From the IMG/VR virus record IMGVR_UViG_3300025392_000003: a stretch of DNA of 63,219 bases. One strand, 5' to 3'. The notes beneath the pieces are model-generated. The model worked only from the letters and a program-made list of their open reading frames with translations, was not told the origin of the DNA and made no database searches. A program made the translations under genes and the position numbers. The first letter of the stretch is position 1, and the number at the start of each line of letters is the position of its first letter. Positions 3,755 through 61,806 of the stretch are shown here, piece after piece. This DNA comes from an uncultured virus (IMG/VR IMGVR_UViG_3300025392_000003) (Duplodnaviria > Heunggongvirae > Uroviricota > Caudoviricetes).

Positions 3755-4588
3755 TTAGAAAGGAGAATATTCAGGAACGGCGAAGACAGGACAGATTTCC
3801 TTAAAGGAACACCATTTCTCGCACAAGTTGTTTGGAACTGGCGGGAAGAACTGTAGGTCATACCAATTCTCAATCTTGGCCCAAGCCTCACGAACTCGCT
3901 TCTCGGCGTAGGTGACATCTTCATCGGTCACTTCTACTACGAGGGTTTTTCCAAACTGGACATAGAGCAATCGGATTTCCGTAGGCCGCTCACCTAGAAC
4001 TGTCTCACAGAGGTAGGCATAGATTTTGGCTGGCAGAAGTGCTGATGCTTTGTATTTGTCGCCCGGCACTTTGCCCGTCTTGTAGTCCACGATAATTAGG
4101 TTGCCCTTGTCATCTCGGTCTAGGCGGTCGAGGATTCCCTTAAGAATCCATCCGCCCATATCCGCTTTCATCTCTATCTCTATACCCTCGTTTACCACTT
4201 GGGTTGGGTCTTCCATAGTGAAGTAGGTGCGTATGTATTTGGCTAGGTCACGACCGAACACTTGGATACCCTGTTCGTCTATTCCCATCTCTTCAGCAAA
4301 CTCTTGGGTCACGAGCCCACGAAAAATCTCTCGCATCAAGGCAAGGGCGTAGTCAAGGGTTCGCTCTTCTGGCGTTTCAGCAGTTCGATTGAACATCTCT
4401 TCGAGGATTGCGTGGAATACCGTTCCTCGGTATGTCTCCATCTTCTTGCGCTCGGGCAAGCGTTGGATAGTGGAGTATTGGTATTGGCGAGGGCAAGTCT
4501 CAATCTGATTTACTCGGCTTGGTGATACGCCGTAGGGCTTGGGGCCGAGCGAGACTGGTGTGGATTCCATAGGGTCTATCTTACTCAA
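3755..4588 (-). CDS. RecB-family / Cas4-like PD-(D/E)XK exonuclease
   Basis: SPSR..CPRQY, GTVFHAILE, GILDRLD, IVDYKTGK and C-terminal CEKWCSFKEICP cysteines. Confidence 0.85.
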   Translation of the reverse strand: MSKIDPMESTPVSLGPKPYGVSPSRVNQIETCPRQYQYSTIQRLPERKKMETYRGTVFHAILEEMFNRTAETPEERTLDYALALMREIFRGLVTQEFAEEMGIDEQGIQVFGRDLAKYIRTYFTMEDPTQVVNEGIEIEMKADMGGWILKGILDRLDRDDKGNLIIVDYKTGKVPGDKYKASALLPAKIYAYLCETVLGERPTEIRLLYVQFGKTLVVEVTDEDVTYAEKRVREAWAKIENWYDLQFFPPVPNNLCEKWCSFKEICPVFAVPEYSPF

Positions 4589-5935: not shown

Positions 5936-6343
5936 CTACTTACGCTCATTGTGAACCTTTACGATTCCCTCAATAATCCAATTCACCACAGGCACGGCTA
6001 CGGCATTTCCCATTTCCTTGTATCGGTTGGTGGTGGAGTTGATTTCTGTCCAGCCACGAGGAAAACCTTGTAGGGCTTCGCACTCTTCTGGTGTCAAACG
6101 GCGAACCGATAGTTCACTAGCGATTACTGGCGTGTGACCGCCACCGCCACCTGAAGCGGCAGTAAGAGTTGGTGAAACGCCCTCTCCTACGGCTGCGTGT
6201 GGGTGTTGGCCGCCGAGAATTGGAATATTTCCGCCACCGGTTCCCATAAACGCCAACAAGGTTGGTGAAACGCCCTTGTGTTCATCTACAGCGCCAGTCC
6301 TACGATTGGTCACATAAAGACTGTCGTTATCGGTTGTGGACAT
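5936..6343 (-). CDS. C5 DNA methyltransferase C-terminal module 4 (TRD + motifs IX/X)
   Basis: VSPTLLA..GTGGGN; RRLTPEECEALQGFP; RYKEMGNAVAVPVV. Confidence 0.85.
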   Translation of the reverse strand: MSTTDNDSLYVTNRRTGAVDEHKGVSPTLLAFMGTGGGNIPILGGQHPHAAVGEGVSPTLTAASGGGGGHTPVIASELSVRRLTPEECEALQGFPRGWTEINSTTNRYKEMGNAVAVPVVNWIIEGIVKVHNERK

Positions 6344-6728
6344 CTACGATTCCTTTGATGACCCAATCAACGACTGGCACGGCGACTGCGTTGCCCATTT
6401 GCTTGAATCGGTATCGGTCAATTTGGCCGTTGTCTGTCCACCCGATAGGGAAGCCTTGTAGTTGCTCGCACTCTTCGGGTAGAAGACGGCGTGGCTTTGG
6501 GTGGATAGCGAACACTTGAGCGTGGTGGCTCTGAACGCTTGGTTGATGTGCTGAAATAGTGCCAGCAACATCTACGGGTGTGGCGCTAAAGGTATTTGCT
6601 TTGGCATCTTCCCTAATCGAATAGGCAAGATACTTGAGTATGTAGGCATCTTGGGTCGTTCCTACGGCAGAATCGCCCATACCAGCCAATAGGGTCGGCA
6701 TCACTATTTCGTCTTTATTCTCACTCAT
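6327..6728 (-). CDS. C5 DNA methyltransferase C-terminal module 3 (TRD + motifs IX/X)
   Basis: RRLLPEECEQLQGFP; RFKQMGNAVAVPVV. Likely start is MSENKDE at 6728, overlapping the previous stop. Confidence 0.85.
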   Translation of the reverse strand: MSENKDEIVMPTLLAGMGDSAVGTTQDAYILKYLAYSIREDAKANTFSATPVDVAGTISAHQPSVQSHHAQVFAIHPKPRRLLPEECEQLQGFPIGWTDNGQIDRYRFKQMGNAVAVPVVDWVIKGIVDVHNR

Positions 6729-7065
6729 CTTTGTTGTGAACTTCAATAATTCCGCCAATCAACCACTCCACTAGTGGAACGGCAATAGCGTTTCCTATTT
6801 GTTTGTATCTTGAAGTGCTAGGGTTTGTCGCTATTTCTGTCCAATTATCAGGAAAGCCCTGTAAGCGTTCGCTCTCTAACGGTGTGAGGCGACGGACAGC
6901 ACCCCCTTTGTGGAGAATAATCACCCCGCCTTGATTACAAGTTGGGTTGAGACAGGCCGTATCTAGCGTTTTTGAGAGATTGATAAGTCGGCATCCCGAT
7001 ACAGGATTCCGACTCTTCATTGAGTTCGATGATTGCGAGTCAATCGAGAACGCTTGGGTGGTCAT
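6721..7065 (-). CDS. C5 DNA methyltransferase C-terminal module 2 (TRD + motifs IX/X)
   Basis: SKTLDT..NPTCNQGG; RRLTPLESERLQGFP; RYKQIGNAIAVPLV. Confidence 0.85.
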   Translation of the reverse strand: MTTQAFSIDSQSSNSMKSRNPVSGCRLINLSKTLDTACLNPTCNQGGVIILHKGGAVRRLTPLESERLQGFPDNWTEIATNPSTSRYKQIGNAIAVPLVEWLIGGIIEVHNKDE

Positions 7066-8105
7066 CCGTGAACCTCAACGATTCCGGCGATTACCCACTC
7101 AACAACAGGAACAGCAACGGCATTACCCATCTGCTTGTAGCGATGGACATTGGCTTGTTCCTTGCTATCAGCACGGAGAAGCGTGTGGTCGTCTGGGAAT
7201 CCCTGTAGGCGCTCGCACTCGATAGGAGTGAGGCGGCGAACTACCGAGCGAGTTCTGATTGTGGGGTATCCCTGACCGGGCTTTCCGCCACCGAGCGTTA
7301 GGGCGTTAAATACCGTTTGCTCACGAACCTCTGAACGCTGGTTCTCATAGACCGAGAATGATTCCTCGCCCTCTGCGAATACACCCGGCACTCGGCCTGT
7401 GGTGATTGTTGTTGAGGGGTCGCCGTTGTCGCCAATACCCATACCTTGTTCTCCGTCTGGTGGTCGTGTTGCGTTTCTGATGTCAATAGGAATAGTCGTA
7501 AGTATGTTGTGTCGGTTGTTGTCCACAGTTCTTGTCACCGTTTCTGTTCCGTAAACTCTGTAGGGCTGGGGCATTTCGGGCCAAGGGGTTAGGCAACCTG
7601 TCTCTGAATTGTTTTCAGCAGTTGGCGTTTCTTGCCCCGCTTGCGTGAGGATTAGGTGGCGATTGTTATCGACTGTCCTAGTCACGGTATCGGTGCGATA
7701 AACCATATTTGGCTGACCCATCTCTGGCCAAGGGGTTAGATTCCCCGTAGGGGTTGTTGGTAGTTCTTCTTCGTAAAAGAGTGCCAACTGATTGTCTCCC
7801 ATATGGGCTCGTAGGGTTGGGGCTATTTCAGCAGGGTCGTGACCCTCAATACGGCTCATAGCACCCGGCTCAAATACGACAGGCTGGATAACGCCAGTGG
7901 ATTGTGGAGTTCCGGCCCGAAGTGTGTGGTGAGTATCGCTAATCGAGAAGTTGTATTCATCAAAGGCAACGGCTACCGAAGCACCGCCAACGGCTGTGAG
8001 TGTGTAAGCAGGGTCGCCCTCTTCACCAACTCCAAATCCGTTTTGCTTCTGATTCATACCCCGACCGTCTTGGATTGGGATAACGATTGGGTCGTTCTCG
8101 CTCAT
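7062..8105 (-). CDS. C5 DNA methyltransferase C-terminal module 1 (several TRD-like repeats + motifs IX/X)
   Basis: Repeated (P/Y)TL(T/R)A units; RRLTPIECERLQGFP; RYKQMGNAVAVPVV. Confidence 0.85.
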   Translation of the reverse strand: MSENDPIVIPIQDGRGMNQKQNGFGVGEEGDPAYTLTAVGGASVAVAFDEYNFSISDTHHTLRAGTPQSTGVIQPVVFEPGAMSRIEGHDPAEIAPTLRAHMGDNQLALFYEEELPTTPTGNLTPWPEMGQPNMVYRTDTVTRTVDNNRHLILTQAGQETPTAENNSETGCLTPWPEMPQPYRVYGTETVTRTVDNNRHNILTTIPIDIRNATRPPDGEQGMGIGDNGDPSTTITTGRVPGVFAEGEESFSVYENQRSEVREQTVFNALTLGGGKPGQGYPTIRTRSVVRRLTPIECERLQGFPDDHTLLRADSKEQANVHRYKQMGNAVAVPVVEWVIAGIVEVHG

Positions 8106-8434
8106 AGTTCCTCAAAAGCACCGAATACTGGCTCTTGCGTATCAACGGAAACCATAGGAACGCCTAGCCCGATGTAGTCGTTGCCACTTGCCGTGAGGGT
8201 AGGGGCAATCTTTTCACCATACATAGAGTTGACTCGGCGCTCTACAACTACCTTGTCGCTTCTCTTGCTATCGGTCGCCACGAGGGTAGCCATCTGGGGC
8301 GTTTCAGCATAACCGTTAAAGTTGCTACCGGAAAAGCCGATTTGCTCAACAAGAATGTGGTCTTCTTGCGAAGATGAGGCGCGTAGTGTGCCTACACCTG
8401 TTGAGTATTCAGCAAATCCTGACTTGTAAAAGGG
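8102..8434 (-). CDS. TRD-like segment of the methyltransferase; open in the -1 frame upstream of the annotated ATG at 8293
   Basis: The frame reads PFYKSGFAEYSTGVGTLRASS...MATLVATDSK...IAPTLTASG with no stop from about 8446 to 8102; TL(R/T)A repeats match the neighbouring modules. Confidence 0.55.
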   Translation of the reverse strand, partial: PFYKSGFAEYSTGVGTLRASSSQEDHILVEQIGFSGSNFNGYAETPQMATLVATDSKRSDKVVVERRVNSMYGEKIAPTLTASGNDYIGLGVPMVSVDTQEPVFGAFEEL

Positions 8435-9150
8435 TTGGTCGTGTTCTCATCTGTGACGGACACTCCCCCCTTTGCTACTCCGGCTTGTAATCCGCCGCTT
8501 GTGCTTTCAATGCTTGTAAAAGCGGTTCGGGTAGTTTCTTCCCCCGTCGCTCGGCTCTGGTCAGAATCCCCGCACACGCTTTCGCGCTCAAATAATACTT
8601 CTGCGGTACTTCGCCAGTCTCTAGAACGTCGGCCAACGATGAAGACACGACGCCGCCGCTGGGGAACTCCGAAGTATTGAGCATCCAACACCCGCCAACT
8701 GACGCCGTACCCGAGGTCAACCAGCGTTCCGACAACTGCTCCCATATCTGCTCCCCGTTGACTTGATAAAAGGCCGGGGACATTTTCGAGGACGAACCAC
8801 TCCGGTTGGAGTTCTTCGATGATGCGCGCGACTTCGTAGAAGAGGCCGCTTCTCTTTCCAGCCAGCCCTGCACGTCTTCCGGCAACGGAAAGGTCTTGGC
8901 AGGGGAATCCACCGACAAGGATTCCGTTTCTTGGGTCAAATCCTGCTGAAATAAGTTGCTCACCCGATACCTCCGTGACATCGTTAAATAGTTTTGTATT
9001 TGGGAACTGCTTTGCCAACACTGCTTGTGCGTGTTTGTCAATTTCTACTGCCGCTACGACATTCACTCCGTTGCGCTCTAGTGCTAAGTCGAAACCGCCC
9101 ACGCCCGCAAATAGTGAAACCGCAGTCATCTGTTTGGTTTCGTTAGCCAT
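8392..9150 (-). CDS. C5 DNA cytosine methyltransferase, catalytic N-terminal subunit (motifs I-VIII only)
   Basis: SLFAGVGG (I), GGFPCQD (IV), LENVPG (VI) and QRRRRVF (VIII); motifs IX/X are absent. Likely start MANETKQ at 9150. Confidence 0.9.
   Translation of the reverse strand: MANETKQMTAVSLFAGVGGFDLALERNGVNVVAAVEIDKHAQAVLAKQFPNTKLFNDVTEVSGEQLISAGFDPRNGILVGGFPCQDLSVAGRRAGLAGKRSGLFYEVARIIEELQPEWFVLENVPGLLSSQRGADMGAVVGTLVDLGYGVSWRVLDAQYFGVPQRRRRVFIVGRRSRDWRSTAEVLFERESVCGDSDQSRATGEETTRTAFTSIESTSGGLQAGVAKGGVSVTDENTTNPFTSQDLLNTQQV
8475..9041 (-). CDS. Nested alternate-frame ORF, putative methyltransferase partner polypeptide (EcoHK31I-beta-like arrangement)
   Basis: 188-aa ORF lying wholly inside the MTase gene in another frame, ending SSLADVLETGEVPQKYYLSAKACAGILTRAERRGKKLP. 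The start position is uncertain. Confidence 0.6.
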   Translation of the reverse strand: MTNTHKQCWQSSSQIQNYLTMSRRYRVSNLFQQDLTQETESLSVDSPAKTFPLPEDVQGWLEREAASSTKSRASSKNSNRSGSSSKMSPAFYQVNGEQIWEQLSERWLTSGTASVGGCWMLNTSEFPSGGVVSSSLADVLETGEVPQKYYLSAKACAGILTRAERRGKKLPEPLLQALKAQAADYKPE

Positions 9151-9304: not shown

Positions 9305-9808
9305 CTACCAAGCCGAGCAGTAGCCGTATTGGTCGGGAACATAGTCCTTATAGCCACCGTAAGTTTGGATATGGGTGGCAATCAATACCTGTTGTTCGGG
9401 GGTGGCTTGAGAGGCGTTTTGGGCGAAATCCCGACCGCCGAAATACGCCCAGTTGTAGTTGGTGATTCCTAGACCGCCCGAAAAGATATGGCCTCTGGCT
9501 TTCCAGTTGCCGTTTGTCTCGCAGTGGGCTACCTTGAGCCACTTCTTCATAACCGATGGGGTCACGATAGTAGTTGGGTAGAGGGCATAGGGGCTAGATA
9601 TCGCTTGAGCGTTTATCACTATGGGGGTGATTTCCCTAGTTGGGGTGCTTGCTTGGGCTATCGGTTGTAGCCCGCTCACGGCGAAGATAATCGCTAGGCC
9701 TATAGCCACCGCCGAGGCCGCTTTCGCGCCCATCTCTTCGACACCATCACATAAGTCTTGCCAGATACTACGAATAACACTGCGCATTACTACAGGGTTG
9801 CTTGTCAC
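9305..9808 (-). CDS. Rpf-like transglycosylase with an N-terminal hydrophobic signal or anchor
   Basis: WLKVAHCETNGNW...GGLGI...W...FAQNASQATPEQQVLIA is the Rpf/transglycosylase signature. Confidence 0.85.
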   Translation of the reverse strand: MTSNPVVMRSVIRSIWQDLCDGVEEMGAKAASAVAIGLAIIFAVSGLQPIAQASTPTREITPIVINAQAISSPYALYPTTIVTPSVMKKWLKVAHCETNGNWKARGHIFSGGLGITNYNWAYFGGRDFAQNASQATPEQQVLIATHIQTYGGYKDYVPDQYGYCSAW

Positions 9809-42074: not shown

Positions 42075-42512
42075 ATGTCATTAGACCAACAAGAAAAAGA
42101 ATCAGCACCAACGCAGGAAACAATCCTGTTCGTTGCCTACGGAACGCTACGCAAAGGCGAGCCCTTACACAACTGGATTGAGCAGTCAATTATTAACGAC
42201 CTCGGCCCGATTGTAATCAAGGGGGCGAAACTTTACTACCAGCGTGGTCATCGCTCTTACCCGGTTCTTCGGTGGAGTGGGTCTATCGCTGACAAGGCCG
42301 TAGGTGAATTGTATGAACTCGCCCTCAACGATGACACAATCGCTATGTTGCGAATGGAGTCGGGTGCGGGCTACACAATTAACGAGGCAAGTGTGGAGAC
42401 TCCTAGCGGCGAGTTGCTAGAGGCTACCGTTTGCACTTGGCAATATGAAGTCGGAGATGAAGTTCCGAACAACGACTGGTGTTCGGTCGAGAGGAAAGAG
42501 TGGTGGCGATAA
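42075..42512 (+). CDS. Gamma-glutamylcyclotransferase (AIG2-like)
   Basis: FVAYGTLRKG..H..YP..VGELY..E..Y. Confidence 0.85.
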   Translation: MSLDQQEKESAPTQETILFVAYGTLRKGEPLHNWIEQSIINDLGPIVIKGAKLYYQRGHRSYPVLRWSGSIADKAVGELYELALNDDTIAMLRMESGAGYTINEASVETPSGELLEATVCTWQYEVGDEVPNNDWCSVERKEWWR

Positions 42513-50560: not shown

Positions 50561-51658
50561 ATGCCACAGAACCGGCCTAACAATTACAACTGGTCGAACA
50601 TTGACCGCTCACGCGCAGCAACTCGCTTGCGCCAAGAAGCGGCCTACACGCTTCGCCAAAACGGAGTGTCATACATTGAGATTGCCCGCCAACTCGGTTA
50701 TGTTGACGCGCTCGGCAATCCAAAGGCACAATCAGCAGCCGAGGCCGTTCGTGCGGTAGCCCGCCGTATGGCACTTGGCAACAGCACCACTACCGACTAC
50801 TCGGTGGCTAACGGTGAGTTCCCTATGCTTCCCTCGAACCGCACTTTCGGTTTCGAGGCGGAGTTCTTCGGTATCACACCTACCGAAGCAACGGCCGCTC
50901 TCGCCGCTATCGGAATCACCGCCCCTTATGTTGGCTACAACCACGATGTCTCGACTAACACCGTTAGCGGTTGGAAGTTGGTTTACGACCAGAGCGTTAA
51001 CGGTCGTGGCACGGGTCTTGGTCGTGGTATGGAATTGGTTTCGCCAGTCCTACGAGGTGAAGAGGGATTGGTTCTCGCTGCCAAAGCGGTCAACGCCCTA
51101 CAGAACGCCGGTGGTAAGACCGACAAAACTTGTGGCTTACACATTCATATCGGTATGGACGGTTTGACCGGGAAGCAGATTGTCAAGACCCTTGACCTCT
51201 ACTCGGCCAACCAAGAGCACATCAACAAGTTGATTGCTCGTAGTCGTTGGACCAATATCTACTGCCAGCCGATGGACCGCTACACTCGCAACAGCACTAC
51301 CGTAGTGAACTTCGAGAACGCCGACAGCGTGGGTGACACCCGCCGTTTGCGCCCAACGCTTAGCCACTACGACCGCTACCACGCTGTCAACCTTGCTTCC
51401 TACGCCAAGTATGGAACCGTTGAGTTCCGTCAGCACCAAGGAACGCTTAACGGCGAAAAGGTGACTTCGTGGGTCAAGTTCCTTATGGCTATGGTTGAGA
51501 AGTCAGTCACTATGGACACAGCAACCGACCTCACTTCCCTTGACGGATTGCTGAACGGCTTGCCACTCCACTCGGAGACTCGCACTTTCCTCACCCGTCG
51601 CGCCGAGCGCTTAGAGCGTAGCCGTGACGAAGCCCGCGCACGAGCAACATCTAACTAA
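50561..51658 (+). CDS. Putative amidoligase (COOH-NH2 ligase, Amidoligase_2) with an N-terminal HTH
   Basis: TFGFEAE, WKLVYDQSV, ELVSPVL, TCGLHIHIG, RYHAVN, TVEFRQHQGT. Confidence 0.88.
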   Translation: MPQNRPNNYNWSNIDRSRAATRLRQEAAYTLRQNGVSYIEIARQLGYVDALGNPKAQSAAEAVRAVARRMALGNSTTTDYSVANGEFPMLPSNRTFGFEAEFFGITPTEATAALAAIGITAPYVGYNHDVSTNTVSGWKLVYDQSVNGRGTGLGRGMELVSPVLRGEEGLVLAAKAVNALQNAGGKTDKTCGLHIHIGMDGLTGKQIVKTLDLYSANQEHINKLIARSRWTNIYCQPMDRYTRNSTTVVNFENADSVGDTRRLRPTLSHYDRYHAVNLASYAKYGTVEFRQHQGTLNGEKVTSWVKFLMAMVEKSVTMDTATDLTSLDGLLNGLPLHSETRTFLTRRAERLERSRDEARARATSN

Positions 51659-51669
51659 AGGAGATAACA

Positions 51670-52398
51670 ATGTGTGGAATTGCTGGATTTTGCTTCACGC
51701 AAAACGAAAAGATAGATGCCCAACTTCTATCCGAGTGCCTACTAAATCAAATCGTTGAGCGTGGTGAACACGCCACCGGTGCGGCGTGGGTATTCAAGGA
51801 TGGCAACAAAAAGGCTTCTATCGCTGTTAGTAAGGCCCCTGTCCCCGCTTGGGAGTTTGAGCCATACTTGGCGGAGATGCCTACGGATACTCGTAGGGCT
51901 ATCCTTCACACTCGCTACGCTACGCAGGGTTCACCACAGGACAACCTCAACAACCACCCGATTGTTTCGGGCCGGGTCGTGGGGGTTCACAACGGACACT
52001 TGGCGAATGACAACGCAATCTTCGACACCCTACGCTGCGAGCGTTATGGTGAAGTGGATAGCGAAGCGGCGTTTGCCTTGCTTGCCAACACGATTCACGC
52101 CCCTAACAAGGTTCTGAAGTCTCTCAAGGGTCGGGCCGCCTTAGCGTGGTTCGATGCCAAGGATAAGCGTGACCTACACCTTGCCCGTGTGACCGATTCA
52201 CCACTTGCTATCGGCGTGACCCCAAAGGGTTCGTTGGTATTCGCTTCCACTATCCCCTTGCTAGTGAACGCTTGCGAGGATGCTGGCGTGAAGTTGGAGT
52301 GGATAGAAAATATCAAGCCTTATACCTATATGCGAATCCGCAACGGCAATATTCTTGATGTTCGCAAGATTGGCGAGAGTCTGAAAGCGATTGCCTAA
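51670..52398 (+). CDS. Class II (Ntn) glutamine amidotransferase
   Basis: MCGIAG, RGEHATG, HTRYATQG, NNHP, HNG, VDSE. Confidence 0.9.
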   Translation: MCGIAGFCFTQNEKIDAQLLSECLLNQIVERGEHATGAAWVFKDGNKKASIAVSKAPVPAWEFEPYLAEMPTDTRRAILHTRYATQGSPQDNLNNHPIVSGRVVGVHNGHLANDNAIFDTLRCERYGEVDSEAAFALLANTIHAPNKVLKSLKGRAALAWFDAKDKRDLHLARVTDSPLAIGVTPKGSLVFASTIPLLVNACEDAGVKLEWIENIKPYTYMRIRNGNILDVRKIGESLKAIA

Positions 52399-55482: not shown

Positions 55483-55721
55483 ATACTCTCCAATCAGAGT
55501 GGTTCATAGCGAATCAAGAGAAGATTCTGAACGACCTAGAGCGTAATCCCAACGGATTGTCGGTTGAGGAAATCAGCAGCGATACAAACATCTTTGAGCC
55601 GAGCCTAACTTGGCTTCTAGACCGCCTTGAGAGCGACGGAAAGATTCGGATAGTCGGATACTCCCAAGTCTGGTCTAGATGGTCAGGAAACGGCACACAG
55701 GCTCACTACGCGCTCGTTTAG
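55479..55721 (+). CDS. Small winged-helix-like protein
   Basis: ILNDL..NPNGLSVEEIS..L..LESDGKI. Confidence 0.55.
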   Translation: MNTLQSEWFIANQEKILNDLERNPNGLSVEEISSDTNIFEPSLTWLLDRLESDGKIRIVGYSQVWSRWSGNGTQAHYALV

Positions 55722-56347
55722 AGGCTCATACCTCGCCACACATTAGGCTGGGGCATATCTAGGGGCATAACATCAGGCAAAGCCCTGCGTGGCTTACGCC
55801 CAGACAGGTTGAGTTCGGTCAATGCCCATACAAGGGCATCAAGCCGGTCTGGTGAATTGTGCTTGCCCGCTTCAGGAACCCAAGTTGTCATCTGCTCTTC
55901 CAAAGTAGCGAACTGTGTTGGGTCGCCTATGTGATGAACTCGCCCCTGCTCGTAAAGAGCCACGATAGGTTCAGCACGAGCCCGCTTTCCCTCGCCCGCA
56001 TTGGGTCGCAATACTGGCAAGGTCGGGCGAATCGTGCGTAGGGTCATTTCCAAGAGTTCGTGACCAGCGTTGCTTTCTACAACAACAACGCCAGCGTTCC
56101 ACTCGTCAAAGGCTTCTACGACTCTCGTGGCCCACTTTTCAGGTGTTGCCTTTTGCCCTCTAGGGATAGTGGCATCTTCCAAGATGTAGCCGTGAACTTT
56201 ACAATGTTCCAAACTACAAGTATCTGGCTGATGCGGCCCTGATGCGGCAACGATAATCCCGGTCTCGTCAGAGTTCTCGCCACTCGTCATAGCGGGGTCA
56301 ACGCCTACAACGATTCGTAGGAAGTCATCAGCACTTACGGAAATCAT
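55718..56347 (-). CDS. Terminase large subunit, C-terminal nuclease domain (separate ORF)
   Basis: RIVVGVDPA..DETGIIV..VVESN..K..RAEP..LYEQGRVHH..SPDRLDALVWA. Confidence 0.9.
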   Translation of the reverse strand: MISVSADDFLRIVVGVDPAMTSGENSDETGIIVAASGPHQPDTCSLEHCKVHGYILEDATIPRGQKATPEKWATRVVEAFDEWNAGVVVVESNAGHELLEMTLRTIRPTLPVLRPNAGEGKRARAEPIVALYEQGRVHHIGDPTQFATLEEQMTTWVPEAGKHNSPDRLDALVWALTELNLSGRKPRRALPDVMPLDMPQPNVWRGMSL

Positions 56348-57294
56348 ACGATAGCCAACTGTCCACGACAGGAATCAATCATTTCCAAAGTCCATAGCGA
56401 ACCGTCAACATCAGTCATCATCACGCCCATCAACTCCTGCTGACCAATACGAGTTCCCTCATACGCCTGAATAACGCTCTCTCGGAACGATGGGGCGAGG
56501 TTCTTTAGGTTTTCGTAGGTCGTACCGTTTGTGATAGTCGTGTTTTTTCTACCCAAAATCTCCTTTACGAGTTTGACTCGCTTAGGGGTTGTGGTGAAAA
56601 GAGCCTGTGGCTTCTCGCCTAGACGAAGACCGAGCATCAAGTTGTTATACGAAGTGTCCAAAGCATCGCCTCGGAACGCATCACTCCACGCCGCAATCTC
56701 ATCACCCCAAGCGGCATCGTGCTGTGGACCACGCAACTGGTCGGGGGCCGCTGCCGAGTATGTAAAGCATTCAGCACCGTTGGCGAATAGGAGTCGGCGT
56801 TTCGTGGGCTCGTGGAGAGGCTTCGGGTGGGGCGAAGAGCAATTCATAATCCCAGAGTCTCCGCCAATCATTACATCTCGCACATCGGCTGGCGTTCTAC
56901 CGATAAGGGCAATACGGCGATAGCCCTGATTCCAAACTAGGTCAAGCACCCATTCAGCACCACTTCTCGTTTTCCCAGTGCCTCTACCGCCCATATACAT
57001 CCAAACTGTCCAAGGGTTCATCGGGTCTTGCTTCGGTGGGCGTTGGCTGGTTCGGGCGTGTTTGCAAAAAGATTTGTGGTTTTCGGAGTCAATCGGATGG
57101 TCGCACCAGTGGAATCCGGCGTGTGGTTCACCATCGCAAGTTTCACGGGGGCAATACCAATGCCGTTGGATTTTGGTCGCCTCGGCCTCAATCGCCTGCG
57201 TGACTGCGTAGAGTTCTTCGGGCGATAAGGAGTTGAGAATCGCCTCGCGCTGTGCCTTTGGCAAAGCAAGGAGTTTTTGGATTGTGGAGTTCAT
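56344..57294 (-). CDS. Terminase large subunit, N-terminal ATPase domain
   Basis: GGRGTGKTRSGAEW (Walker A), LRGPQHDAAWGDE (Walker B), TTTPK, YEGTRIGQQEL. Confidence 0.92.
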   Translation of the reverse strand: MNSTIQKLLALPKAQREAILNSLSPEELYAVTQAIEAEATKIQRHWYCPRETCDGEPHAGFHWCDHPIDSENHKSFCKHARTSQRPPKQDPMNPWTVWMYMGGRGTGKTRSGAEWVLDLVWNQGYRRIALIGRTPADVRDVMIGGDSGIMNCSSPHPKPLHEPTKRRLLFANGAECFTYSAAAPDQLRGPQHDAAWGDEIAAWSDAFRGDALDTSYNNLMLGLRLGEKPQALFTTTPKRVKLVKEILGRKNTTITNGTTYENLKNLAPSFRESVIQAYEGTRIGQQELMGVMMTDVDGSLWTLEMIDSCRGQLAIV

Positions 57295-60669: not shown

Positions 60670-61806
60670 TCATCTAATCTCCACTTCGTTTAGTAATGGG
60701 GCCGCTTCCGTAATTCGCTTTCGGGCAATTTCACCATAGTCAGGATTTAGTTCCGTTCCCACGAAGTTTCTTCCAAACCTATTGGCTACTACGGCTACTG
60801 TTCCCGAACCAATAAAGGGGTCAAGGATTGTGTCGCCCTCTTCGCTTCCGGCTAGGACACAAGGCTCTACAAGGGCTTCTGGGAAAGTCGCAAAGTGCGC
60901 GCCCCTAAACGGTTTGGTGGTGATGTTCCACACATCTCGCTTGTTCCTCTTGCCATCGGCAATTTTGTATTCGGGTGGGCGAGCATTGACTCCCGATTGG
61001 GCGGCTCGTTCCTCACTACCTTTGGCATACTTCGTTCCCGCAGGGATAACACCATCTTCCTTGATGGCTTCGTGGTCGTAGAAGTATTTGGGGGATTTGG
61101 TTAGTAGGAAAATGTATTCGTGGCTTTTAGTCGGGCGGTCACGAACGCTCTCTGGCATAGGGTTGGGCTTGGCCCAAATAATGTCCGACCGCAAATACCA
61201 ACCATCGGCTTGTAGGGCAAACGCCAAACGCCACGGGATACCGATTAGGTCTTTAGGCTTTAGACCAGCCTCACGCATCTTGGCTCGGTCATCAGTTGGG
61301 CGAGTCTTACCTTGCCCCGCTATCTGGTGATAGGCCTGATTGATACTCTTGCCACTCTCGACTCTCTCGGCTTGCTTCTCTGGGTCTTCTTGGTTTGATT
61401 TCCCTTTGCCACCCATATAGGAGTCTCCGATATTGAGCCATAGAGTTCCATCATCAGCAAGGACTCTCCAAACTTCACGAAACAACTCAACCATCGCTGC
61501 AACATAGGCATCTGGCGTATCTTCCAAACCAATTTGTTCGTCTTCACGCTTCGCCCCACAATGAGGGCATTCCCCTACGGCCTCATCACCAAAGGAACCA
61601 GAGTTGCTCGCTTGCTTTCCCGATAGACCGCCCCTAGTGGCTCTGCCTACCTTGTGGTCGCACTCTTCATCGCCACCAATCCACGAACCCGTGCCGTAAT
61701 CCCTAAGTCCAAAGTAGGGTGGTGAAGTCACGCAAGTTCTTACCGACCCACTAGGGATTTCGGTAAGGCGTTTGCGAGCATCGCCTATGAGGATTAGAGA
61801 TTTCAC
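60670..61806 (-). CDS. DNA N4-cytosine/N6-adenine methyltransferase (beta class)
   Basis: VTSPPYFGLRDY, WLNIGDSY, IIWAKPNPMPES, HFATFP, LDPFIGSGT. Confidence 0.92.
   Translation of the reverse strand: MKSLILIGDARKRLTEIPSGSVRTCVTSPPYFGLRDYGTGSWIGGDEECDHKVGRATRGGLSGKQASNSGSFGDEAVGECPHCGAKREDEQIGLEDTPDAYVAAMVELFREVWRVLADDGTLWLNIGDSYMGGKGKSNQEDPEKQAERVESGKSINQAYHQIAGQGKTRPTDDRAKMREAGLKPKDLIGIPWRLAFALQADGWYLRSDIIWAKPNPMPESVRDRPTKSHEYIFLLTKSPKYFYDHEAIKEDGVIPAGTKYAKGSEERAAQSGVNARPPEYKIADGKRNKRDVWNITTKPFRGAHFATFPEALVEPCVLAGSEEGDTILDPFIGSGTVAVVANRFGRNFVGTELNPDYGEIARKRITEAAPLLNEVEIR

Follow-up and report, generated by a model that had tools for sequence, protein, structure and literature searches.

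A candidate three-chain C5-cytosine DNA methyltransferase with four alternative TRD-IX-X chains in the genome of an uncultured tailed phage

The window analyzed here is a stretch of 63,219 nucleotides (nt) from an uncultured virus of the Caudoviricetes (IMG/VR record IMGVR_UViG_3300025392_000003), and its subject is a DNA methyltransferase locus on the minus strand between positions 5936 and 9150. The first gene of the locus, at 8392..9150 (-), encodes a catalytic chain (α) of 252 amino acids (aa) with C5-methyltransferase motifs I to VIII, without motifs IX and X and with no evident target recognition domain (TRD) unit of its own. It matches PF00145 (DNA_methylase) over positions 1 to 168 of 324 only (E value, 2.3e-57) and TIGR00675 over positions 2 to 163 of 329, and its motifs begin at residues 14 (FAGVGG), 81 (GFPCQ), 122 (ENVPG), and 164 (QRRRRVF). 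An earlier reading of the letters alone (here called the original prediction) had described a single catalytic open reading frame (ORF) with motifs I to VIII but without IX and X, and the partial PF00145 match and the motif positions bear this out. The length of the chain falls within the range of 201 to 301 aa found in split relatives with a single closing chain.

Motifs IX and X are found on four consecutive ORFs downstream, each of which we call a cassette. Cassette 1 (7062..8105 [-]) encodes 347 aa with about seven TRD-like units followed by IX-X, matches PF00145 at 269 to 322, and has a GAGG upstream of its ATG. Cassette 2 (6721..7065 [-]) is shorter, with 114 aa, one TRD-like unit, and IX-X, while cassettes 3 (6327..6728 [-]; 133 aa from its ATG) and 4 (5936..6343 [-]; 135 aa) each carry two TRD-like units before IX-X. 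All four match PF00145 at approximately 252 to 323 (E values, 4.6e-13 to 7.6e-10), and an alignment led by cassette 2 matches M.HhaI residues 268 to 320, in agreement with the prediction of four intact, overlapping IX-X ORFs with different N termini. The IX-X parts are 62 to 75% identical to each other, and the N termini are unrelated. Cassette-to-cassette overlaps measure 4, 8, and 17 nt, with the ATG start reaching over the preceding stop each time; a start codon over the previous stop was present in all 14 cassette junctions examined, and the start codon of cassette 4 lies 14 nt before the preceding stop in the window and at loci L341, L001, L002, and L236. Translational coupling, as originally proposed, is thus supported from cassette to cassette, but not from the catalytic stop to cassette 1, which starts 287 nt past that stop and overlaps instead the stop of a startless frame at 8102..8446. 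On its predicted proteins, the locus would be classed as a C5-cytosine DNA methyltransferase (PF00145), with motifs I to VIII, including the catalytic PC and ENV, and with IX-X after a variable region.

A further ORF lies wholly inside the catalytic gene, in its +1 frame, at 8475..8963 (-). The +1 frame is open from 9044 to 8475, and translation presumably starts at the GTG at 8963, with GGAGGT 5 nt upstream, to give a chain of 162 aa that appears to resemble the core of the M.EcoHK31I β chain without its motif IX; β residues 35 to 75 share 23 of 41 ungapped identities with the nested-family consensus, counted by eye from the truncation primers of the published work and carrying no E value. 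Relatives were picked by the catalytic protein alone, as the best 80 of at least 563 viral candidates and the best 80 of 231 genome candidates, duplicates kept, and the nested ORF was matched in the +1 frame at 80/80 viral and 80/80 genome loci (160/160). Over a fixed 147 codons the +1 frame is free of stops in 132 of 157 loci, compared with 0 of 157 for the +2 frame, and upstream of the nested stretch the +1 frame is stop-free in only 11 of 158 loci. This frame control led us to reject the explanation that conservation of the catalytic frame has by itself produced the nested ORF.

The nested ORF has a match to phrog_16143, annotated as DNA methyltransferase (E value, 7e-8), and of 8,000 proteins scored, at least 5,625 belong to its family. 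It underlies annotated methylase genes of many cultured phages, including dmt of P1, and is present without annotation in the records of the cultured phages Dove and HokkenD. Matches also lie under the annotated dmt/dam of the P1-like phages RCS47, P1, and P7 and in several hundred P1-like plasmid records. No Pfam domain was found in the family among the 120 homologues listed, and the nested ORF itself has no PF00145 match, motifs IX and X sitting together on the downstream ORFs. Structure prediction of the chain alone was uninformative, with only three C-terminal helices confident and a best Z score of 3.5, and a profile search of the sequences of solved structures returned a single match at an E value of 2. 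The nested ORF is, however, tied to the methylase by natural fusions in which it continues into TRD-IX-X; such fusions number 3 among 188 distinct viral catalytic sequences and 3 among the 80 genome loci. The original prediction of a heterodimeric enzyme therefore stands as to the split into separate chains, but its count of two chains is probably incomplete, since a third, nested chain is conserved at every locus compared.

Between the catalytic gene and cassette 1, an open frame without a start codon, in the -1 frame at 8102..8446 (-), could encode 114 aa with three TRD-like units; it contains an internal ATG at 8293 without a clear ribosome-binding site. At L001 and L002 its counterpart is the last part of a 383-aa catalytic chain, with which it is in frame (63 to 65% identity; ratio of nonsynonymous to synonymous substitution rates [dN/dS], 0.12 to 0.13). 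In the window, the catalytic chain and this tail are parted at a CCCTTTT run at 8428..8434 (-), which has one base fewer than the corresponding stretch at L001 and L002. An identical, ungapped frame-break sequence is found at L238, L342 (3 substitutions in 1,654 bp), and L341/G001 (9 in 2,219 bp), and the one-base loss is therefore real. A sequencing error was considered and rejected, because three other contigs carry the break, two of them with substitutions of their own.

Among the 80 viral loci, 69 consist of a catalytic ORF, a nested ORF, and one separate IX-X ORF, 2 have three IX-X ORFs, 5 encode one chain, and 4 are incomplete. The 80 genome loci are mostly one-chain enzymes (69), with 3 fusions of the nested chain to IX-X, 2 split loci, and 6 without IX-X in view. 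In split loci the IX-X ORF occurs in all three relative frames, and its start codon falls within -60 to +30 of the catalytic stop in 89 of 105 of them (window and its duplicate counted); the varied frames and the nearby start codons are better explained by separate translation than by a fixed frameshift.

More than one IX-X ORF was seen in 11 of 256 distinct fetched entries, a count that comes partly from the same contigs and is enriched by the choice of query. Such arrays fall into three groups: the clade of the window, with three or four cassettes; L160, with two IX-X ORFs that group together (support, 100/98); and L181/L183, with two complete methylases and two extra IX-X ORFs. Multicassette arrays are thus rare, with 467 places from 464 records in cultured phages, and related phages commonly show the three pieces with a single cassette. 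The 115-kb viral record G005 (L181, 3080-7275) combines the tandem complete methylases with a lone IX-X ORF that lies some 6 kb from them on the opposite strand (L356, G005:C1:65332-65574).

Only the window and L238 show the four-cassette state. Along 7,490 bp, L238 matches the window through all four cassettes without a gap, differing by 3 N, and it possibly derives from the same reads. Three-cassette arrays were found in G001/L341, L001, L002, and L236. The window, G001, L001, L002, and L236 all have these cassettes in the order 1-3-4, as emerged from the comparison of module number and order in related phages that had been proposed at the outset, and the concern that the tandem copies might be an assembly artefact is largely refuted by orthologous arrays in four other genotypes. 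G001, the closest record (about 61 kb alignable to the window at 97.9 to 99.7% identity) and about 99% identical, lacks exactly cassette 2, which is also missing from L001, L002, and L236. At the G001 junction, the sequence of cassette 1 runs to a GTTCAC in the motif X tail and continues as the tail of cassette 2, with frames and coupling intact; the presence or absence of cassette 2 amounts to 332 bp between the copies of GTTCAC at 7068-7073 and 6736-6741. A recent gain of cassette 2 is a simpler reading than loss in G001, because L001, L002, and L236 also lack it and because 20 matches to its unit, the best at 60 to 68% identity, lie outside the clade.

Cassettes 1, 3, and 4 are under purifying selection, with dN/dS values (pairwise Nei-Gojobori) of 0.05 to 0.16 that are rough, since dS is near saturation. 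Orthologues of cassette 1 at L001, L002, and L236 are 80 to 81% identical (dN/dS, 0.05 to 0.11), those of cassette 3 at the same loci 83 to 85% identical (0.055 to 0.072), and those of cassette 4 69 to 73% identical (0.15 to 0.16 versus L001 and L002; not computable versus L236). For IX-X alone, dN/dS is 0.03 to 0.12 in the five pairs with finite dS. In a tree of the IX-X parts, the sequences of cassette 1 cluster with one another (95/95), as do those of cassette 3 (98/97), each of these positions having its own clade, and cassette 4 is not resolved. The earlier argument that intact ORFs speak against decay is strengthened by this selection and by the start codons that the cassettes have kept.

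Fifteen units of approximately 30 to 50 aa with a T-L-like core were delimited by eye. The tail holds 3 of them, and cassettes 1 to 4 hold 7, 1, 2, and 2, respectively (about 12 in the cassettes). The original prediction of one TRD-like N terminus per ORF holds for cassette 2, with its one unit, and is corrected for cassettes 1, 3, and 4 by these counts. A TL core is found in the TRD of M.HhaI. From this core, their place before motif IX, and the tandem TRDs of Bacillus phage enzymes, the units appear to be TRDs, some of which may be inactive. For 11 of the 15, matches were found outside the clade, where they lie in methylase variable regions of one-chain enzymes as well as of separate chains. 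Two near-identical units in cassette 1 (PWPEM...RTVDNNRH; 7500-7745 [-]) are duplicated in the window, L001, and L002 and single in L236, a difference in copy number that points to gain or loss at the level of the unit inside a cassette.

Taken together, we consider it probable that these genes encode an orphan phage C5-cytosine methyltransferase that would be assembled from three separately translated chains and would serve in defense against restriction. The first would be the catalytic chain with motifs I to VIII, the second the small chain from the +1 frame inside the catalytic gene, and the third one of four alternatives, which together would bring about 12 recognition-like units and each of which would close the fold with motifs IX and X. 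As each closing chain supplies a motif X, one core would take one cassette at a time, and an infected cell would hold a pool of isoenzymes, one per cassette. The tandem units inside a cassette might act as those of the multispecific Bacillus phage enzymes do, and the repertoire might shift through gain and loss of whole cassettes at the motif X tail and of single units inside the chains. The phage DNA would thereby be marked at several motifs and could be protected against several host restriction systems. This reading is argued for by the complementarity of the motifs (I to VIII in one ORF, IX-X in four), by precedents for a split enzyme, for fragment complementation, and for a nested chain, by the single-cassette, three-piece layout that is the norm in close viral relatives (69/80), by the natural fusions of the nested ORF into TRD-IX-X, by the extra IX-X ORFs at L160 and L181/L183, by the 11 of 15 units matched outside the clade, and by the absence of several restriction-type sites from the window. 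That the cassettes are alternatives is suggested by the low dN/dS of cassettes 1, 3, and 4, the start codons at all junctions examined, and the exact presence or absence of cassette 2; the mix-and-match enzyme of several specificities originally proposed thus finds indirect support in purifying selection, separate starts, and variation between strains. We infer translation of the nested chain, assembly of the three chains, different targets for the units, and the antirestriction role from these features and from known enzymes. A more far-reaching version falls, in our estimate, a little short of being probable: the catalytic and overprinted chains would form a core that accepts any of the four readers, the roughly 12 portable units would have different targets, and readers would move between phages at the motif X tail and might act in trans.

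Each of the ingredients has a precedent, namely, the AquI split, the EcoHK31I nested chain, tandem TRDs, and HsdS exchange. M.AquI (CYCGRG) is described as a large chain with motifs I to VIII and a separate small chain with a variable region and IX-X, and monomeric C5 enzymes can be divided into N- and C-terminal fragments that complement each other in cells (PMC3404938). In layout, the locus resembles M.AquI in being split inside the variable region, with I-VIII and TRD-IX-X in separate genes, but one small chain is described there, whereas the window has four, several with tandem units, together with a nested third ORF. M.EcoHK31I (YGGCCR) requires a β chain whose coding sequence lies within the catalytic gene in a different reading frame (PMC2836561), and the putative second chain of the window likewise lies wholly inside the catalytic gene. 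In M.EcoHK31I, the α chain has I to VIII, the TRD, and X and the β chain has IX; in the window, by contrast, the nested chain is without IX, and TRD-IX-X is found on further chains. The C5 methyltransferases of Bacillus phages (SPR, φ3T, ρ11, and H2) and M.φBssHII are described as having several tandem TRDs on one core (PMC8936443). The window appears to have, like them, tandem recognition-like units (here delimited by eye) for one phage catalytic core; their units stand in one coding sequence, however, whereas here about 12 are spread across four IX-X chains and 3 lie in a cut-off tail. In type I restriction-modification systems, specificity is altered by exchange of the HsdS subunit on a common methyltransferase (PMC12707154). 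HsdS exchange differs in fold and chemistry, and in the window the exchanged chain would complete the catalytic fold (IX-X) and no restriction subunit is evident.

A cultured parallel to this layout is mycobacteriophage Dove (gp107 and gp108), known from its GenBank annotation, which has the three-piece form with a 248-aa catalytic ORF, a 159-aa nested ORF 53% identical to that of the window, and a 116-aa IX-X ORF, and which differs in having one cassette. No functional description of the Dove split methylase was found. Several alternative IX-X subunits or a three-chain C5 enzyme were likewise not found in the open literature searched, which included passages of mycobacteriophage papers but did not extend to the primary EcoHK31I, AquI, and Trautner laboratory papers or to REBASE.

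Several observations weigh against a three-chain enzyme with alternative cassettes. The fixed one-base loss severs the tail of the catalytic chain, which means that the locus can shed some of its parts; activity would not have to be impaired by this, because 252 aa is usual for split relatives and cassette 1 has its own GAGG. The selection estimates are rough, as stated above, and cassette 2 yields none at all (saturated dS and no orthologue in the clade) and is dispensable in G001. When cassette 2 was folded alone, its unit remained below 50 in the predicted local distance difference test, and Foldseek gave no match at an E value of ≤0.001; this says nothing against homology, because the IX-X homology is seen by sequence search. 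The assignment of the units as TRDs is based on position and on a T-L-like core, and 4 of the 15 units are without a match outside the clade, including the two near-identical ones in cassette 1. Finally, the window and G001 were compared for a footprint of 5-methylcytosine deamination. Their 373 isolated differences, of which 264 are of C/T type, showed enrichment in the contexts A_A, GA_, and _AT, and there was no excess of CG, GGCC, or CCGG from which a target motif could be inferred.

Of the other explanations, the least implausible, which we nonetheless regard as unlikely, is that only cassette 1 partners the core and that cassettes 2 to 4 are translated for another job, either competing with or tuning the enzyme or completing in trans the catalytic chains of coinfecting phages or prophages. 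A single cassette is enough in 69 of the 80 close viral relatives, cassette 2 can be dispensed with, and in G005 an isolated IX-X ORF stands away from the methylase genes. A simple competitor, however, would not need the complete IX-X and conserved recognition-like units that all four cassettes keep, and all four stand in one coupled run behind the catalytic gene. Somewhat less likely still is that the downstream cassettes form a silent reservoir to be recombined into an expressed position, which the original prediction had offered as its alternative. A crossover in the motif X tail did occur between strains, and the units are common to distant phages, but the idea is not borne out: the 1-3-4 order and the position-specific IX-X of cassettes 1 and 3 have been retained at near-saturated synonymous divergence, which argues against shuffling, and every cassette keeps a start codon. 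Moreover, by the logic of the sequence, shared homology exists only 3' of the units, so that crossovers would delete downstream units rather than promote them.

We also find it improbable, slightly more so than a reservoir, that ribosomal frameshifting joins the catalytic chain, the tail, and the cassettes into longer single chains, as in a conventional multi-TRD enzyme. The CCCTTTT run does have the X XXY YYZ slippery form in the catalytic frame, a -1 shift there would restore the tail that is in frame at L001 and L002, and two overlaps are short (4 nt from cassette to cassette and 4 nt from tail to cassette 1), though those between cassettes vary in length. Low-level slippage at 8428-8434 alone would also fit the three-chain explanation. 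A fused chain throughout is hard to reconcile with a start codon at 14 of 14 junctions, with split relatives in all three relative frames at varied offsets, and with the several motif X helices in one chain, for which there is no obvious fold. RNA structure that might stimulate slippage 3' of the run was not convincing (z, -1.8). Decaying duplicates or an assembly artefact, last, we hold to be very improbable. The locus does contain one real frame break, and four cassettes were seen only in the window and L238; nevertheless, IX-X parts that are 62 to 75% identical with unrelated N termini are not collapsed repeats, and orthologous arrays under purifying selection are present in four other genotypes.

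If the three-chain interpretation is correct, the specificity of a C5 enzyme could be changed through exchange of one small chain rather than by alterations within one gene, and many specificities could be obtained from a single core. In its more far-reaching version, this would amount to type I-like subunit exchange for a C5 enzyme and to a large natural library for the code that relates TRDs to sequence; short portable units would make that code testable cassette by cassette and might provide a modular platform for targeted methylation. To the known ingredients the window adds a fourth cassette that varies between near-identical strains and a putative third chain in the same system, with arrays in two other lineages. 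The nested ORF is unannotated in Dove and HokkenD and lies under the annotated methylase gene in P1, so that cloning of a recoded or annotated methylase gene by itself could give false negatives.

The window is part of a tailed-phage genome, with Pfam matches to portal, head protease, capsid, terminase, and endolysin among its ORFs. Two WhiB genes (Pfam) and the transglycosylase gene adjoining the methylase locus suggest an actinobacterial host. That Rpf-like transglycosylase gene (9305-9808 [-]) is directly upstream of the methylase, and its 3' part is exchanged for other sequence in G001. The nearest nuclease, a PDDEXK_1/Cas4-like ORF at 3755-4588, is 1.3 kb away and is probably a phage recombination exonuclease; the small ORFs beside the methylase have no nuclease match. 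Phage orphan methylases can protect against restriction enzymes (PMC4190342). The window has zero AGCT, GATC, CATG, CCAGG/CCTGG, and GTAAC/GTTAC sites, compared with approximately 548, 540, 278, 60, and 60 expected (both strands counted), an absence that fits strong restriction pressure through long exposure to several restriction systems. The relative G002 also lacks GATC, CATG, and CCAGG, but it has AGCT and GTAAC and is without the strong ACGT depletion of the window. These differences suggest different sets of host restriction.

Elsewhere in the window, a second DNA methylase gene of the N4/N6 type (PF01555) lies at 60670-61806 (-). The terminase large subunit is encoded by two overlapping ORFs (55718-57294 [-]), an ATPase at 56344-57294 and a nuclease at 55718-56347. 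Genes for amidoligase, glutamine amidotransferase, and γ-glutamyl cyclotransferase, a set that resembles those for peptide or cell wall modification, are on the plus strand at 50561-52398 and 42075-42512. About 12 large ORFs, most of them without a Pfam match, occupy the stretch (10131-32409 [-]) that separates the methylase locus from the head protease/portal region, and G001 differs from the window by blocks within this stretch. A repeated KGD-x-x-GH-x-F-x-GNQ-like motif that follows "AK" stands at the start of, or within, several of these ORFs, which possibly encode head-packaged cargo proteins that share a cleavage or targeting signal.

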